Part shown: in pieces, positions 3,261-49,773 of the stretch | Layout: each line of letters opens with the position of its first letter | Numbering within the stretch: position 1 is the stretch's first letter | Assembly: GCF_988243305.1 (NCBI RefSeq) | Contig: NZ_OZ547136.1 | DNA: 64,000 nucleotides | Reading direction: 5' to 3' (one strand) | The notes under the pieces: generated by a model | Told to the model about the DNA's origin: nothing | What the model saw: the letters and a program-made list of their open reading frames with translations, nothing else | Databases searched by the model: none | Translations under genes and position numbers: made by a program

Positions 3261-4838
3261 ATGAATTCTTCCTTTGAATCTCTGATTGAACAGTATCCCT
3301 TACCCATTGCCGAACAGTTGCGCCACTGGGCGGCCCGTTATGCCTCGCGAATTGCCGTCGTTGATGCAAAGGGGTCGTTAACCTACAGCGCGCTTGATGC
3401 ACAAGTTGACGAACTTGCCGCAGGTCTGTCATCACTGGGTTTGCGTTCGGGGGAGCATGTAATTGTGCAGCTTCCCAACGACAATGCGTTTGTTACCCTG
3501 CTGTTCGCCTTGTTAAGACTGGGTGTTATCCCCGTGCTGGCGATGCCCTCGCAACGGGCGCTGGATATCGACGCGCTGATTGAGCTGGCGCAACCCGTCG
3601 CTTACGTTATTCACGGGGAAAACCACGCAGAGCTGGCCCGACAGATGGCGCACAAACACGCCTGCTTGCGTCATGTTCTGGTCGCTGGAGAGACCGTGAG
3701 CGACGATTTTACGCCGCTCTTCTCCCTTCACGGTGAGCGACAGGCATGGCCGCAGCCTGATGTTTCCGCCACCGCGTTGTTGTTGCTCTCAGGCGGCACA
3801 ACCGGCACGCCCAAACTCATCCCGCGCCGACATGCCGACTATAGCTATAACTTCAGCGCTTCTGCTGAACTGTGCGGCATCAGCCAACAGAGCGTGTATC
3901 TCGCCGTCCTCCCGGTGGCGCATAACTTTCCGCTGGCCTGCCCCGGTATTCTGGGAACGCTTGCCTGCGGCGGAAAAGTGGTGCTGACCGACAGCGCCAG
4001 CTGTGATGAGGTGATGCCTTTAATCGCGCAGGAAAGAGTGACTCACGTCGCCCTGGTTCCGGCGCTGGCGCAATTATGGGTGCAGGCCAGGGAGTGGGAA
4101 GACAGCGACCTTTCGTCGCTGCGCGTCATTCAGGCAGGCGGCGCCCGGCTCGACCCGACGCTTGCTGAGCAGGTTATCGCCACCTTTGACTGTACCCTGC
4201 AACAGGTTTTCGGTATGGCGGAAGGCCTGCTCTGTTTTACCCGGCTGGACGATCCGCATGCCACCATTCTCCACAGCCAGGGGCGCCCGTTGTCCCCTCT
4301 GGATGAAATCCGCATCGTTGATCAAGACGAGAACGACGTCGCGCCGGGCGAAACCGGGCAATTGTTAACGCGCGGCCCTTATACCATTTCGGGCTATTAC
4401 CGCGCCCCTGCCCACAACGCGCAGGCCTTTACCGCGCAAGGGTTTTACCGCACAGGCGACAATGTCAGGCTGGATGAGGTGGGGAACCTGCACGTTGAGG
4501 GACGCATAAAAGAGCAGATCAACCGCGCCGGAGAAAAAATAGCCGCGGCTGAAGTGGAATCGGCACTGCTGCGTTTAGCGGAAGTGCAAGATTGCGCGGT
4601 GGTCGCCGCGCCGGACACGCTGCTTGGCGAGCGGATTTGCGCGTTTATCATCGCGCAGCAGGTGCCAACTGACTATCAGCAGTTGCGTCAACAACTGACC
4701 CGTATGGGGCTCAGCGCGTGGAAAATTCCTGACCAAATCGAGTTTCTGGACCACTGGCCGCTCACCGCCGTCGGCAAGATAGACAAAAAACGCCTGACGG
4801 CTCTCGCCGTCGACCGTTATCGCCATTCTGCCCAATAA
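3261..4838 (+). CDS. ybtE: Salicyl-AMP ligase YbtE (525 aa)
   Basis: Adenylate-forming enzyme motifs (LLLSGGTTGTPKLIP, YRTGD, GKIDKK); operon position. Confidence 0.85.
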   Translation: MNSSFESLIEQYPLPIAEQLRHWAARYASRIAVVDAKGSLTYSALDAQVDELAAGLSSLGLRSGEHVIVQLPNDNAFVTLLFALLRLGVIPVLAMPSQRALDIDALIELAQPVAYVIHGENHAELARQMAHKHACLRHVLVAGETVSDDFTPLFSLHGERQAWPQPDVSATALLLLSGGTTGTPKLIPRRHADYSYNFSASAELCGISQQSVYLAVLPVAHNFPLACPGILGTLACGGKVVLTDSASCDEVMPLIAQERVTHVALVPALAQLWVQAREWEDSDLSSLRVIQAGGARLDPTLAEQVIATFDCTLQQVFGMAEGLLCFTRLDDPHATILHSQGRPLSPLDEIRIVDQDENDVAPGETGQLLTRGPYTISGYYRAPAHNAQAFTAQGFYRTGDNVRLDEVGNLHVEGRIKEQINRAGEKIAAAEVESALLRLAEVQDCAVVAAPDTLLGERICAFIIAQQVPTDYQQLRQQLTRMGLSAWKIPDQIEFLDHWPLTAVGKIDKKRLTALAVDRYRHSAQ

Positions 4839-6990: not shown

Positions 6991-6996
6991 TTATTG

Positions 6997-7027
6997 TAAA
7001 AGGGATACCGAAAAGGTATCCCTTTTA
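6997..7027 (+). terminator. Rho-independent terminator after fyuA
   Basis: AAAAGGGATACC-GAAA-AGGTATCCCTTTT hairpin directly after the stop codon. Confidence 0.6.
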
Positions 7028-7775
7028 CACCACTAGTTAAAACCAGTAACTCAGCAGAGTCGCAAAAAATATTAATCCATAGTGATTATTTAAACAATGA
7101 AATTGCGATTAGGATAAATAGATTTAACTTTCTCGTTCCTTTCTCTCCTTATACTAAAGAAATAATCATATCAAAATAAAAATTCACAACAGTGCAACAT
7201 TAAAAAATACAACCAACAAACAATCCTATATACAAGGCACATCTCCAGAATATAAAAGCACAGACAAACAACCTAAAAAAAACAACCCCATACATATAAA
7301 TTATTTTATAGGTAAAATAGATTATATATTCTCATAGCTACCACAAACTATACTAGCCTGAACTATATTTATTCTGCTGCAATCAATGCATACATAACAC
7401 AAATATCACTCAGGTACACTACTCAAACCACGCTGGGATTTTTCCTCAAGTTATAATCATCACCCCGAAAATCATTCGGCATTTACTCATTAAATAGTCA
7501 CCCCATAGGCCTGTACATGTTTACTCAGAAATATACATCCTTTTCTCTGTCATAAACCCTCTAATTAATCATAAATAAATACTTGTGACACCAATCTTTT
7601 TCCTTAACGGAACGAATTGTTGTGTAGAAGGAGATAATATTATGTCAAAAAAAATATCAGCCATTGCTTATAACTCATTATATGTCAACATGGGTCACTA
7701 TAACGGAAGCAGTTGAGATCACTACCAAAGCCATAAAACAAAAAAATTACTCCTAGCGATATTTATCGTCATGCC

Positions 7776-15910: not shown

Positions 15911-15919
15911 TTATATGTT

Positions 15920-15953
15920 AAAGAAATCTGTCTTTATGGCAGATTTCTTTAAT
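15920..15953 (+). terminator. Rho-independent terminator after yeeN
   Basis: AAAGAAATCTG-N9-CAGATTTCTTT hairpin followed by T-rich tract. Confidence 0.5.
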
Positions 15954-23559: not shown

Positions 23560-24101
23560 TTGATTTTTACTCCAATACCCGAAACCACCAGCCATACTTC
23601 ATTTGCCGCAGCGGCCAGCTGCTGATTTACCCGCCCGGCAATATCACGAAAATGTCGTGCCAGACGACTCTCCGGCACAATCCCCATTCCCACTTCGTTA
23701 GTCACTAATACAACCTTTGCGGGGCAACGTTGGCAGGCAGCAATCAACGACTGAATCTCAGCATTAATCGCCTGTTCCATCGCCTGATAATCCCATTCAT
23801 CAGGGTCTTTATCGCCGCCATAATCAAACAACAGATTAGTCACCATTGTGGTAACGCATTCCAGCAACACAGCTTCATGCGGGTTAATGTCTGCATGAAT
23901 TAATTCATCAAGATGTTGCCAACGCTCCACCGTGCGCCAGTGCGCCGGACGGCCTTGCCGATGATGTTCTATCCGTGCAGCCATCTCGTCATCAAGGATT
24001 TGCGAGGTAGCGATATACAGAACCTGTGAAGAGTCCCCAATAAGCGCCTCTGCGTGGCGACTCTTCCCGCTCCGTGCGCCCCCCGTCACCAAAATCATCA
24101 T
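23556..24101 (-). CDS. cobU: Adenosylcobinamide kinase/guanylyltransferase CobU (181 aa)
   Basis: P-loop GGARSGKS; 181 aa. Confidence 0.9.
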
Positions 24102-25307
24102 ACCGACTCCTGATTCAAATGTATGATGGTATTCATTGAACAGAACAATGGATCCCCCACCGTTGCTGACCGCAAAACATTTACGCGATTAATACTGCGC
24201 GTAATATAATTAAAAATCCAGCATTCTCAATCCATTACGAAATAAGATGGCATTACGGAATAGCCAGACTTTCTCGTGTTAACGTCCGACAAAATGCGTC
24301 ATTGACAGCGGTTTCTGTGGATTGACACATTTCATTCAGATAATGAATTAATGCTACTGCCGGACCAACCAGCAAACGGGCATTGTGTTCTGAAATCCAG
24401 GCTATTGATTCAACGTCAGCGACAGATCTGCGCTGTAAAAGAACTTGTAAAACAACGCAATAGAATTATCCGGAATGGTGGCGACTATGCACTAGAACAC
24501 CACAATTTCGCTCTCTCGGTAAGGCACTGTCACAGCATTCAACAGAATGTGACTTGCCAGATTTATTAGCGCCACCAGATGTTTAACCGGGTAACCACGA
24601 CCCAGTCGGGGATATATTCCATCTTCTCGCTGACATCATCAAGAATAAAAAGGTTTATCACACTCAGAGCAACGTTCTTCAGCAGGCGGGATAATTCTTC
24701 AACATTTAGAAGATGTGTTATTAAAGGCATACAAACTGGACGTATTGTATTTTCTTTTGGTGGTTGACCTAAGGTAGCAGTTTATCCTGATGCGCTGAGA
24801 TTTCTGTAATATCTACGTCAACATTCTCCTCGAATAGAAAATGCAGCCCCGGCAAGTGATTCACATTTTTTAACAAAACGTTGTTAGCGTGCCATTTTCA
24901 GAAGCTCTCCAAGAAAGCGAATTCTTTTCTCAAATTCTGCATTCTCAGACACAGCTTTCTACTCCATGGCAATGGCCCAAATACGAAGTTGCTCAGGATC
25001 ATTAGTGGTGCTGAGAAGTTAAATAACCATGCGGAGTACCACTCGTCATCACGTATTTATATATCATGAAGCTATTGTTGTGTTTTGTACATCAGTAGAT
25101 ATATTCTGATATACTCCTTTTGCTAGACATAACCTTTCACCTGCTTGCAAAGCTTCTGTGTTCTGACATTGCCAAATTGTTGCAATTCTGTATCCAGCCT
25201 TCTTTCAGTCATAGCTTCGGGCCGCGATAAGACTCACTGATCTGACCCTGATTCCTCTTGCAGACTTTATAGACCATTTAAAATGCAGTTTCGGTAATGA
25301 CTCCAAC

Positions 25308-25811
25308 TTATTGATAGTGTTTTATGTTCAGATAATGCCCGATGACTTTGTCATGCAGCTCCACCGATTTTGAGAACGACAGCGACTTCCGTCCCAGCCG
25401 TGCCAGGTGCTGCCTCAGATTCAGGTTATGCCGCTCAATTCGCTGCGTATATCGCTTGCTGATTACGTGCAGCTTTCCCTTCAGGCGGGATTCATACAGC
25501 GGCCAGCCATCCGTCATCCATATCACCACGTCAAAGGGTGACAGCAGGCTCATAAGACGCCCCAGCGTCGCCATAGTGCGTTCACCGAATACGTGCGCAA
25601 CAACCGTCTTCCGGAGACTGTCATACGCGTAAAACAGCCAGCGCTGGCGCGATTTAGCCCCGACATAGCCCCACTGTTCGTCCATTTCCGCGCAGACGAT
25701 GACGTCACTGCCCGGCTGTATGCGCGAGGTTACCGACTGCGGCCTGAGTTTTTTAAGTGACGTAAAATCGTGTTGAGGCCAACGCCCATAATGCGGGCAG
25801 TTACCCGGCAT
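25308..25811 (-). CDS. insB: IS1 InsB (made as InsAB' by -1 frameshift)
   Basis: 167-aa IS1 transposase frame overlapping insA 3' end. Confidence 0.85.
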
Positions 25812-26005
25812 CCAACGCCATTCATGGCCATATCAATGATTTTCTGGTGCGTACCGGGTTGAGAAGCGGTGTAAGTGAACTGCAGTTGCCATGTTTTACG
25901 GCAGTGAGAGCAGAGATAGCGCTGATGTCCGGCGGTGCTTTTGCCGTTACGCACCACCCCGTCAGTAGCTGAACAGGAGGGACAGCTGATAGAAACAGAA
26001 GCCAC
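25730..26005 (-). CDS. insA: IS1 InsA (91 aa)
   Basis: [42 protein letters not shown]. Confidence 0.9.
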
Positions 26006-26577
26006 TGGAGCACCTCAAAAACACCATCATACACTAAATCAGTAAGTTGGCAGCATCACCTGCAGTTTCTGCAGGTCAACGTCTGACCATCATTGTCATC
26101 ACTCTGGCCATTAGAGTAACCTTCTGCATTCATCCTTTTGTAAAAAGTTTATATCAGTATCAGCAATTAACCGGACCTGATACTGATATGAGTCTTACCG
26201 CATATACGGTTAATTTCAGCAATTAATTACATTATCCACGCCAAAGTATTTGTCATCACAATGATGGTACCTTCTTTCAGACACCATTTTTTCAACTCCG
26301 TTTTCCACGGACCGCACTCTTATGTCAAGAGTGCGGTCCGTGGATACAACCAGAGACCGACTGACACGAGTCAGAGGAAACGACGGATATGTTCAGTCGT
26401 AAAATATCTATCAAAAAACATGATTAAGGTCAAAAATGTTTGATATTTACAATTTATGAAGATGACAATAATTATAGACACATGAGAACATAAATGAAAA
26501 TAATTATCATTACAGCAATCTGAATCGCCACGGGTTTAACAGACACCTCAGAGTCATTTAAGATGGCTTAAAGAGAG

Positions 26578-26871
26578 GTGCCCATGAGCGGTAAGCGTTA
26601 TCCCGAAGAGTTTAAAACTGAAGCAGTCAAACAGGTTGTTGATCGCGGTTATTCTGTTGCCAGCGTTGCAACACGTCTCGATATCACCACCCACAGCCTT
26701 TATGCCTGGATAAAGAAGTACGGTCCGGATTCTTCCACTAATAAAGAACAGTCAGATGCTCAGGCCGAGATCCGCCGTCTCCAGAAAGAGCTGAAACGGG
26801 TTACCGACGAACGGGACATATTAAAAAAAGCCGCGCTCTTGATGTCAGACTCCCTGAACAGTTCTCGATAA
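26578..26871 (+). CDS. IS3-family transposase OrfA (HTH)
   Basis: [32 protein letters not shown]...; probable ATG at 26584. Confidence 0.8.
26824..26830 (+). promoter_or_regulatory. Programmed -1 ribosomal frameshift heptamer A-AAA-AAG (orfA to orfB)
   Basis: ATTAAAAAAAGCCGCGCTC at the orfA/orfB overlap, as in IS911. Confidence 0.55.
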
Positions 26872-26897
26872 TCGGGAAACTCAGGGCGCGTTATCCT

Positions 26898-27258
26898 GTG
26901 GCCACTCTCTGCCATGTGTTCGGGGTCCATCGCAGCAGCTACAAATACTGGAAAAACCGTCCTGAAAAGCCAGACGGCAGACGGGCTGTATTACGCAGCC
27001 AGGTACTTGAACTACATGGCATCAGCCACGGCTCTGCCGGAGCAAGAAGCATCGCCACAATGGCAACCCAGAGAGACTACCAGATGGGGCGCTGGCTTGC
27101 TGGCAGACTCATGAAAGAGCTGGGGCTGGTCAGCTGTCAGCAGCCGACTTACCGGTATAAACGTGGTGGTCATGAACATGTTGCTATCCCTAACTACCTT
27201 GAACGGCAGTTCGCCGTGACCGAGCCAAATCAGGTGTGGTGCGGTGATGTGACCTATA
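26898..27258 (+). pseudogene. IS3-family transposase OrfB, 5' exon (interrupted by intron)
   Basis: ...[27 protein letters not shown] then frame diverges into intron. Confidence 0.7.
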
Positions 27259-29986
<2,728 letters not shown>

Positions 29987-30249
29987 CTCGGTGGCCAGTT
30001 TTTGTTGACCACTTCACATCGCCATCCGCAAGGTAACTGTAGAAGTGTCTTAAGAGAGTGCATTGCGTTGCCCATAACTTAAAACAGCTTAGATCCTTGT
30101 TCGCCAGAAAGTTTCATCCATTTTCTTCCACCCAGGTTGCGGAAGAACCACTTTTCATCCGTCGTTGACAGATGTGAAGTATGCGGGAGAAAAAGTGAAT
30201 ATCTAACTGTAATAACTCAGACCGGTACGAGTACTCGGAACGTCTACAA

Positions 30250-30768
30250 TCATTCAGGGCAAAGTGCTAAAATTTCTCTATCCCGGGATGCCCCTACCAA
30301 CGCAGCACTCCCGGAGATATCATTACAGCTCTGCAACTGATTTCCGCGACTGAACCGCTCAGTTCCTATCCTTCCAGTTGCCTTCCTGCAGCCCCCCTCC
30401 CTGCTGTATACCCCGGTACCACAACGCGGGCAGCACTTTTCTCCTTCATAATCTTCGTCACACATCACACAAAACCACTTTCTCACCTTCACCGTATAAT
30501 CCGGAACCGTCATACCCTGCAGATGCAAACGACGGGCCTCTTTCTCTGCCGGGTCAAGCCAGGTGCATCGCAGCAGGATTTTCTCAGCGACAGTCATCTG
30601 GTCATGTTCAAACCACGGTGGTTGTCCGTCATTGCCCCGCTGAAGTGTTAACGGGCATCCACAGGACACACAGCACAAAACGTCCTGGCGGTTGTGCTTC
30701 GCTGCTTCTTTCGCCGTAACAAAATGGCCTTTGCTGTCATTCGCCATATAACAGTTCAGAATTCGCAT
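30250..30768 (-). CDS. Cys-rich hypothetical protein A (172 aa from ATG at 30768), paralog of B
   Basis: AGGAGG RBS 5 nt before ATG (MRILNCYMANDSKGHF); motifs CCVSCGC...PWFEH...FCVMCDEDYEGEKCCPRCG; ATG overlaps stop of B (ATGCGAATTCTGA). Confidence 0.45.
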   Translation of the reverse strand: MRILNCYMANDSKGHFVTAKEAAKHNRQDVLCCVSCGCPLTLQRGNDGQPPWFEHDQMTVAEKILLRCTWLDPAEKEARRLHLQGMTVPDYTVKVRKWFCVMCDEDYEGEKCCPRCGTGVYSREGGCRKATGRIGTERFSRGNQLQSCNDISGSAALVGASRDREILALCPE

Positions 30769-31163
30769 ATTTCCTCCTGAGTTGTCCGGGGAATACTGAA
30801 TCCTCCGGTCTGGCAGTGTGTGCAGTACCGCTCCCCATAATAATCGTGGTGACATTGTCTGCAGTGCCAGCTGGCTTTACGCACCACGGGTAAGGCATCC
30901 GGTACGAATTGCTGCAGACGTTTAATCAACTGTATTTCTCTGCGCTCCGGCCTGACATAAGGGCACTGTTGACCGTGCTCTGTCAGCCTGTCGTCAGTGT
31001 GTTCAAACCAGGGAAGTTCAGTGTCGTATTGCGGATGGTATCTGAGTGCACTGCCACACAAGTGGCAGGTGTAGTTAGCATAAGGTGCGGCCTGTGCAGT
31101 ACGGGCGCCCGTCAGACGTCCGTTGCCATCAAGAGCGATAAAGGATTTTGCGTACATAGTCAT
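30756..31163 (-). CDS. Cys-rich hypothetical protein B (135 aa), putative zinc-ribbon protein
   Basis: GAGGA RBS; motifs CHLCGS...PWFEH...WHCRQCHHDYYGERYCTHCQTG; stop overlaps start of downstream paralog. Confidence 0.45.
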   Translation of the reverse strand: MTMYAKSFIALDGNGRLTGARTAQAAPYANYTCHLCGSALRYHPQYDTELPWFEHTDDRLTEHGQQCPYVRPERREIQLIKRLQQFVPDALPVVRKASWHCRQCHHDYYGERYCTHCQTGGFSIPRTTQEEICEF

Positions 31164-34600: not shown

Positions 34601-34921
34601 TGCCAGTTGTTTCAGGGAAGCTGGTATCCGGGCAGGGTGCCAGGGCTGACTGAACGGCCTGTCTGCCTGCCGTTTCGCTCTCCGTGCGTTCTGTCACACG
34701 CTGCACCTGAACGCCGGACTGCGGGCACGCAGACAGGAAAGTCGCAGGCTGGAACTTCTGACCGGCGGGTATCAGTTATATGCCTGTTGATTCATCACCA
34801 CCACGCAGCTCCTGAGCTTTAGTTCATCACCGATATTCATACATCTGAATATCGGTGATGAAATCCCCATAATAATCAATCATCTAAGTCTGAAGCATAA
34901 TGGAGAAAAACTGCTCACCGG

Positions 34922-49673: not shown

Positions 49674-49773
49674 TTTCGATTGGTTCTCGGATGAGAATGA
49701 TGACGGTGATACACAGATAAGAATCAATGAGCAATGAGGGTTGCCGGGCAACCCTCATTGAATAAAACGGGAA

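Follow-up and report, generated by a model that had tools for sequence, protein, structure and literature searches.

We consider it likely, taking its parts together, that the 460-bp spacer between the IS1 copy and the IS911-like element of this stretch of DNA (positions 26061-26520 of the 64,000 nucleotides analysed, here called the window) is a mosaic of two relics, namely the 3' end of a dead IS1111-type element and the cut-off promoter region of a heme receptor gene, and that the two strong inverted repeats which it contains have separate origins, the shorter one as a hairpin inherited from the IS family and the longer one as an imperfect palindrome of the coding sequence that was perfected after the gene had died. 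The initial annotation had singled out these two repeats, and a repeat search confirmed their sequences, their coordinates and their perfect arms. The 18-bp palindrome (26304-26321 and 26327-26344) encloses a 5-nt loop and the 13-bp repeat (26151-26163 and 26177-26189, read here on the minus strand) a 13-nt loop, with 100% complementarity in both cases. Both are unique within the window: the 18-mer finds only its own two arms in the 64 kb when up to 3 mismatches are allowed (0.04 matches expected), and a census of the whole window ranks the palindrome as its longest perfect close-spaced inverted repeat. Folding yields -38.5 kcal/mol on the plus strand and -43.7 on the minus strand for the palindrome (z about -8 against shuffled sequence), and -20.3/-18.1 kcal/mol for the 13-bp repeat (z of -5.6/-4.2). 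By our own arithmetic, 64 kb should contain about 2e-5 perfect hairpins of 18 bp and about 0.02 of 13 bp when loops of at most 20 nt are counted; both repeats are far beyond chance.

The window belongs to the E. coli chromosome, where tRNA-Asn, ldtA, cobT, cobS and cobU are followed by the left end of a CP4-44-type island. The IS1 copy (25293-26060, with its insA and insB ORFs on the minus strand) is inserted into the IS1111-type remnant and is flanked by the 9-bp target duplication TGCAGTTTC at 25284-25292 and 26061-26069, so that 26061-26520 continues 24100-25292. Genomes free of this IS1 are collinear across the insertion site and, together with the insertion itself, they identify the spacer as the right-hand piece of a longer unannotated stretch; the 460 bp that the initial annotation treated as a unit are therefore not a natural one. 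The other border is formed by the left end and orfA of the IS911-like element of the IS3 family (26522-26871, plus strand), which carries the RefSeq annotation "transposase" in L001 and L002 and replaces the 5' UTR of the receptor gene; the divergence between the window and strain NU14 starts just past ...acagcaatc. Among 5426 complete E. coli genomes, 3558 carry the spacer locus at 95-100% identity and about 1870 are without the region altogether. It is single copy (median 1, maximum 2 places per genome), and a repeat of the REP, BIME, ERIC or MITE type was rejected on that count. PGAP places no annotated feature beneath the spacer in the genomes among the matches listed, and in K-12 its counterpart is 2,068,146-2,068,605, which overlaps the pseudogene yoeH on the minus strand. 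An Rfam scan of 24000-31000 returned only a group II intron and unrelated weak matches, and between 24000 and 27000 no covariance model matched at E <= 1.

The left 60% of the spacer is what decay has left of an IS1111-type (IS110 family) element at its 3' end, as several searches show. Distant blastn against plasmids aligns 26072-26325 with annotated IS110-family transposase genes, for example that of ISEc66, at 66-78% identity. With the transposases of two intact relatives (L008 and L010) as queries, tblastn recovers residues 284-337 at 26337->26176 on the minus strand (46-48% identity, E=3e-9). After removal of IS1 from the window, a DNA profile built from 15 intact elements of Enterobacterales and Burkholderiales genomes matches the minus strand at 26344->26070 and 25292->25143, corresponding to profile positions 982-1427 of 1448 (nhmmer, E=1.7e-46). 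Judged by these alignments, the remnant comprises the transposase gene's last ~55 codons, followed by the 3' non-coding region (NCR, ~280 nt), of an element of the ISEc11/ISEc66 type. Its coding part (26170-26337, minus strand; residues ~284-337 of 339) is interrupted by in-frame stops and is the K-12 pseudogene yoeH, which coordinate mapping and the K-12 annotation place at 26176-26334. On the same strand, the proximal part of the NCR runs from the stop codon to the IS1 insertion point (26166 to 26070), and its distal part (25292 to 25134) continues to the decayed right end, the nhmmer alignment stopping at 25143 and its envelope at 25134. At the other limit, homology ends with the nhmmer alignment at 26344 and the envelope at 26358. 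An extension from 26345 to about 26400 suggested by MAFFT was not retained, since the envelope stops short of it.

The intact relatives give the plan of the complete element. They measure ~1.43-1.45 kb and consist of ~140 nt of 5' non-coding DNA, a gene for a 339-aa transposase and ~280 nt of 3' non-coding DNA that leads to the right end. The transposase of L008, 81% identical to TnpEc11, contains PF01548 and PF02371 and matches the NCBIfam model NF033542, "IS110 family RNA-guided transposase". Perfect 13-bp sub-terminal repeats are present in L008 and L010; in the IS1111 family such inverted repeats measure 7-17 bp and occur at both ends, and insertion is site-specific, directed by pairing of the seekRNA with its target, and leaves no target duplication. 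The domains of L008, its sub-terminal repeats and its long 3' NCR are hallmarks of the IS1111 family. For ISEc11 it has been shown that the 3' NCR (bp 1170-1374) is essential and that it encodes an 82-nt seekRNA, mapped to bp 1253-1334 and made from the same transcript as the transposase, beside which a "long seekRNA" of 154 nt is described (Siddiquee et al., PMC11187229), and the bridge RNA of IS1111-group elements has likewise been located in the right end (Durrant et al., PMC11208160). Among 16 intact relatives, RNAalifold finds a ~75-nt consensus hairpin with internal loops whose position coincides with that of the mapped seekRNA. No Rfam family matched the NCRs of L008, L009 and L010 at E <= 1, and thus no bridge RNA or seekRNA family. 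Mapped through L008, with approximate coordinates, the main part of the seekRNA homologue in the window is 25220-25292 (minus strand) and its first ~9 nt are 26078-26070, with IS1 lying between both pieces.

Compared with the clade of ISEc11, ISEc66 and ISSso1, whose members share this layout and are RNA-guided elements with DEDD transposases and a seekRNA or bridge RNA, the remnant is alike in the coding end, in the whole NCR, in a hairpin at the stop codon and in the homologue of the seekRNA hairpin, but it represents only the 3' third. Because no transposase homology was found upstream of residue ~280-284 in the window by tblastn or nhmmer, whereas intact L008 possesses the N-terminal DEDD (RuvC-like) domain PF01548, the copy in the window is a fragment and not a complete member of the family: the N-terminal ~283 codons, with the DEDD and SG-motif domains, are gone together with the left end. 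PF02371 covers residues 210-285 in L008, where the motif GL-P----S/TG takes the form GLVPRQTGSG; this motif is lost, as the remnant begins at about residue 280-284. The 53-aa translation of the remnant has no Pfam match because it sits C-terminal to the Pfam domains. The right-end sub-terminal repeat, expected near 25134-25150, is degenerate and too decayed to align. Decay also shows in the RNA: of the 39 pairs in the NCR consensus of the 16 intact relatives, the window keeps 26, a loss of a third, while every intact copy keeps 37-39. With its in-frame stops, its lost pairs and an IS1 inside its seekRNA homologue, the remnant is dead. It is also old: in the 5426 E. coli genomes, matches are either at least 95% identical (the same locus) or 60-80% identical, with none between 80% and 95%, and no intact copy is closer than 80%, so that the remnant is a relic diverged by more than 20% from any intact E. 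coli copy. The suggestion of the initial annotation that the repeats mark the end of a decayed mobile element thus holds for the DNA around them, but neither repeat is a terminal inverted repeat, one being an internal stop-codon hairpin and the other part of the coding remnant; for the same reason, the description of their surroundings as non-coding DNA needs to be replaced by a transposase pseudogene with its IS remnant.

The 13-bp repeat is an inherited, family-conserved hairpin, since the same hairpin occurs with compensatory changes in intact relatives. On the minus strand, its 5' arm is formed by the last transposase codons H-I-S-I-R (CAT ATC AGT ATC AG), its loop by the two codons that close the gene together with the TAA stop (26169-26167), and its 3' arm begins 3 nt past the stop. 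A repeat search recovered this hairpin in intact L008 and L010 with a loop of equal length (13 nt), and the independent minimum free energy folds of nearly all 21 relatives contain a helix that encloses the stop codon; in the relatives from Burkholderiales, the arm sequences differ and support for the hairpin is weaker, with z near 0. Compensatory changes are seen within the Enterobacterales set, for example GUCAGUA/UACUGAC in L014 against GUCAGCG/CGCUGAC in L018. In a small sample, an alignment of 12 sequences, 76.9% of the alignment cells are paired against at most 49% in slid controls, and 3 pairs are changed on both sides; this amounts to 4 cells changed on both sides, a number that only 1 of 500 shuffles reaches. 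The perfection over 13 bp is a matter of the window's own lineage: a C has become U, 4 nt have been deleted, and a further change is polymorphic, being absent from NU14 (phylogroup B2). Here the hairpin is only a fossil, made perfect by a few lineage-specific changes. In living elements, it probably insulates the transposase mRNA from the downstream seekRNA or marks the boundary between them: as both RNAs share a transcript, a hairpin at the stop codon is well placed to separate the mRNA from the RNA fold downstream or to mark processing. The seekRNA paper makes no mention of this hairpin, and its delta-NCR deletion of ISEc11 (1170-1374) removes far more than the hairpin's 3' arm (PMC11187229). 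The small structured RNA proposed in the initial annotation is justified by proximity only, the seekRNA region beginning ~90 nt downstream of the hairpin, but this homologue is decayed and split by IS1.

The 18-bp palindrome has a different history. Read on the minus strand, it spans A-L-L-T-*-E-C-G-P-W in the transposase remnant, and alignments show it to be absent from the intact relatives; it is not a feature of the ISEc11 clade, and no function is necessary to explain it. What the relatives possess at the same site is a quasi-palindrome, in which the codons F-I-H-G (..TTATTCATGG) and G-P-W-I (CCATGGATAA) are nearly complementary by coding coincidence (..TTCAYGG against CCRTGGAT). Their folds bring TTATTCATGG and CCATGGATAA together over ~35 nt, with energies of -15 to -21 kcal/mol, compared with about -40 for the stem of the window. 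In the window, the Pro codon (CCN) now reads TGC and exactly complements the Ala codon (GCA) of the opposite arm, and the outer 10 nt are now perfectly complementary. The profile alignment of nhmmer requires deletions of 7 and 3 nt inside the palindrome arm, a gap placement at the outer arm that differs from that of MAFFT, which prefers a 16-nt insertion. Inferred from relatives at most ~78% identical, the palindrome was most likely perfected by quasipalindrome template-switch mutation after gene death. The starting point would have been the quasi-palindrome arising from coding coincidence in the transposase gene; once the gene was dead, an internal loss of ~10 nt and clustered substitutions would have rendered the arms perfectly complementary by template switch. 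This reading is preferred because the clustered changes each copy the opposite arm.

Such mutations have been documented in E. coli with thyA and lacZ reporters and follow the Ripley model (PMC7202029), and, according to a proposal for bacterial genomes as a whole, template switching keeps their inverted repeats perfect (PMC5941160). Our case resembles these systems in that the repeat is imperfect in the ancestor-like sequences and perfect here, with changes that match the opposite arm, and in that a variant within the species has changed both arms together. That variant is found in the near-identical strains BY63 and BY68 (GGACC->GGAGC and GGTCC->GCTCC), with no intermediate form seen, and reflects a recent template switch or, alternatively, a sequencing artefact due to basecalling at the GGWCC motif. 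The difference is one of scale: the events reported usually mend a single base or a few in short quasi-palindromes, whereas an 18-bp stem and a loss of ~10 nt are concerned here, probably through several events.

The right third of the spacer, about 26372-26520, has another source. In NU14, an intact gene lies 30 bp past the spacer and encodes a TonB-dependent receptor of 715 aa that matches the families of heme/hemoglobin receptors best; in K-12, its counterpart is yoeA, broken by IS2. As the gene is absent from the window and the IS911-like element starts at 26522, this third is an orphaned promoter region. Fur-consensus and promoter scans place Fur-box-like sites and promoter-like hexamers of an orphaned heme-receptor regulatory region (hma/yoeA type) at 26458-26514 on the plus strand. 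The best Fur-consensus match of the whole window (15/19) is at 26496, where NU14 reaches 16/19, and four of the seven Fur-like sites of the window that score at least 14/19 lie within 26458-26514, overlapping the hexamers. The segment is therefore a putative Fur-regulated promoter beside the position of an iron-uptake gene. It resembles the promoters of Fur-regulated heme and siderophore receptors by its overlapping Fur-box-like 19-mers (14-15/19, and 16/19 in NU14) upstream of a receptor, and differs from them by the missing gene and by Fur sites that are predictions from sequence. We take the NU14 gene to be hma (c2482) of uropathogenic strains. The name hma designates c2482 of CFT073 (PMC2736566), and we found no literature that links yoeA and hma by name. 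A search of plasmids at near identity gave five matches, mostly chromosomal DNA mis-assigned to plasmids. On one genuine plasmid, the receptor promoter is present from 26372 onward; as an IS abuts it at that point, this copy was rejected as a marker of the junction between IS remnant and promoter.

A second promoter of this region points leftward. The scan finds a sigma-70-like promoter, TTTTCA-18-TATAAT, at 26471-26500 on the minus strand, 130 nt upstream of the palindrome and directed into it and into yoeH; the same hexamers were reported as the constitutive "yoeH" promoter by genomic SELEX (PMC3946193). In K-12, northern blots revealed an RNA of ~150-200 nt antisense to yoeH (iRAP#6850), which is Rho-terminated, sensitive to RNase III and visible only when RNase III is absent (PMC6847712). 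In K-12, transcription thus covers both strands of this region. The initial annotation would have taken single-copy occurrence without transcript or conservation to speak against its proposals; the locus is indeed single copy, but it is conserved within E. coli and transcribed (PMC6847712, PMC3946193). yoeH has been described as a non-functional transposase pseudogene (PMC12363166). The locus of these K-12 studies is the same as that of the remnant, and the three papers (PMC6847712, PMC3946193, PMC12363166) mention neither a placement in IS1111, nor the hairpins, nor the adjacent remnant of a seekRNA region. The window differs from K-12 in that IS1 splits the locus and the IS911-like element takes the place of the receptor gene.

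Other explanations of the hairpins were weighed against inheritance and template switching. The palindrome could have arisen at once when a double-strand break, by which the transposase gene was truncated, underwent fold-back (snap-back) repair: the 3' end would have folded on the quasi-palindrome, primed synthesis and been joined to the DNA now found at the right. The coincidence of the palindrome's outer edge (26344) with the limit of detectable IS homology agrees with this scenario, as do the lack of tblastn matches upstream of residue 284 and the right arm's outer 10 nt, an exact inverted copy of the G-P-W codons. However, the inner 8 nt of the same arm have kept the A-L-L codons in the reading frame of the family, a weak similarity may continue to about 26360-26400, and the Pro-to-Cys codon change was templated in the opposite direction, which makes a simple one-way fold-back copy a misfit; we regard such an origin as quite unlikely. 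Far less probable still is that the hairpins act as Rho-independent terminators or delimit a miniature inverted-repeat element; a terminator and the end of a miniature element had been among the suggestions of the initial annotation. Both stems lie between mobile elements and a U5 run occurs 4 nt past the 13-bp stem on the minus strand, but no T-run directly follows either hairpin on either strand and a terminator scan of 26061-26520 found none. The palindrome is flanked by TACAACC on the plus strand and AAAACGG on the minus strand; the 13-bp stem is AT-rich, and stopping transcription there would block the co-transcribed seekRNA in living relatives (PMC11187229). As for a miniature element, both repeats are single copy in the window and per genome (median 1 place) and have no flanking target duplications.

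A function of the palindrome today, as an RNase III or stability hairpin in divergent transcripts, or as a protein-binding or cruciform site that insulates the receptor promoter from IS debris, would fit with several properties of the locus. A perfect stem is retained by 2147 of the 2760 matching E. coli genomes, phylogroup B2 included, and thus by most lineages; the arms of BY63 and BY68 changed compensatorily, and the common variant of the JJ2434 type (433 genomes), a single uncompensated G-to-A, leaves a tolerated G-U pair on the minus-strand RNA. The minus-strand promoter (PMC3946193), together with sense and antisense yoeH RNAs of which the latter appears only without RNase III (PMC6847712), would supply the transcripts. 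Nevertheless, the palindrome sits in a pseudogene and is absent from every intact relative, and as E. coli divergence is only 1-2% here, little weight attaches to the conservation of 41 nt. An IS3-family insertion interrupts the right arm in about 550 genomes and ~1870 lack the region, template switching keeps palindromes perfect without selection (PMC5941160), and the published RNase III sensitivity was ascribed to pairing of sense and antisense RNAs rather than to a hairpin (PMC6847712). A functional palindrome is therefore unlikely in our opinion, although a present-day role keeps a low but real probability because the perfect stem could contribute to the RNase III sensitivity of this doubly transcribed region. 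A broader proposal would make the stop-codon hairpin a working module of living ISEc11-clade elements (for boundary, processing or insulation) and let the palindrome, kept perfect by template switching, serve as the structure sensitive to RNase III in the RNAs from the divergent heme-receptor and yoeH promoter region; as a whole we hold it to be doubtful. The preferred reading is still that of an inherited stop-codon hairpin and a palindrome perfected by template switching in a dead gene.

The object is thus a fossil fragment of a known kind of element, the RNA-guided IS1111/IS110 type, joined to an orphaned, putatively iron-regulated promoter; the finding is an ordinary one and carries little weight for biology at large. 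Its value is more local. A conserved and unannotated stretch of 1.2 kb beside cobU is now explained, and the K-12 pseudogene yoeH is linked to the RNA-guided IS1111 family, with a fossil seekRNA region adjoining it. For annotation, the lesson is that where strong hairpins lie between IS copies, a third and older IS may have left them behind. The palindrome offers a clean natural example of how an imperfect coding palindrome may turn into a perfect 18-bp one after gene death. Finally, those working on bridge RNAs and seekRNAs may take an interest in the conserved and covarying hairpin at the stop codon, which in living elements of the ISEc11 type lies a short way upstream of the seekRNA.

Intact relatives of the IS1111-type remnant have a predicted RNA fold in common, which lies downstream of their transposase gene. 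Among L008-L026, our retrieved relatives, a 39-pair consensus fold of this 3' non-coding region is common to sixteen intact ISEc11-type elements, which come from both Enterobacterales and Burkholderiales and each keep 95-100% of the pairs; the hairpin of the seekRNA, the guide RNA encoded there, is enclosed by a long-range helix (AGGUUGC...GCAACCU) which forms part of the fold. No Rfam family matching this 3' non-coding fold was found. Two intact elements were compared at their 13-bp sub-terminal inverted repeats, located at 2329-2341/3738-3750 in L008 and at 2331-2343/3748-3760 in L010. The repeats differ at a single position (..GCG.. versus ..GTG..), where each arm carries the corresponding change; the two ends therefore co-vary from one element to the other.

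Matching changes in both arms were also observed for the 18-bp palindrome. In strains BY63 and BY68 (sequence L047), GGACC is changed to GGAGC and GGTCC to GCTCC, at the equivalents of window positions 26312 and 26336, and the stem is still perfect. Because this variant is confined to these two near-identical genomes, it stems either from template switching in the recent past or from a basecalling artefact where a GGWCC motif occurs. The window contains further perfect, close-spaced inverted repeats of 17 bp (34823-34862), 15 bp (6995-7029), 14 bp (49732-49760) and 13 bp (15918-15952).

From cobU to the right end of the IS1111-type remnant, window 24100-25130 (K-12 yeeH, the IS5H insertion site and yoeG) holds fragments of a cbiP-like "cobalamin biosynthesis protein" and of an IS4-family transposase, together with the pseudogene yoeG, which is heavily decayed. 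The IS5 of K-12 is inserted at the equivalent of window position ~24492-24495. At 26458-26520 (4400-4490 in the retrieved sequence L006) lies the promoter of a TonB-dependent heme receptor gene of hma/yoeA type; it contains Fur-box-like sites and is orphaned in the window. In E. coli NU14 the receptor gene directly follows this promoter, and in the window its place is taken by the IS911-like element, which starts at 26522. The orfB of this element is interrupted by a group II intron (27270-29530) with a reverse-transcriptase ORF at 27915-29438 and an Rfam Intron_gpII match covering domains V/VI at 29442-29528 (64.9 bits).

In about 550 E. coli genomes the right arm of the 18-bp palindrome carries an IS3-family insertion (seen in the retrieved sequences L004, at 4277-4320, and L048), situated after window position 26337, with the element end reading TGATCCTACCCACG... 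In the ISEc11-like non-coding region of Brenneria (L012), a similar IS3-type end likewise lies inside a hairpin. Both cases may come from this IS preferring hairpins as insertion sites.
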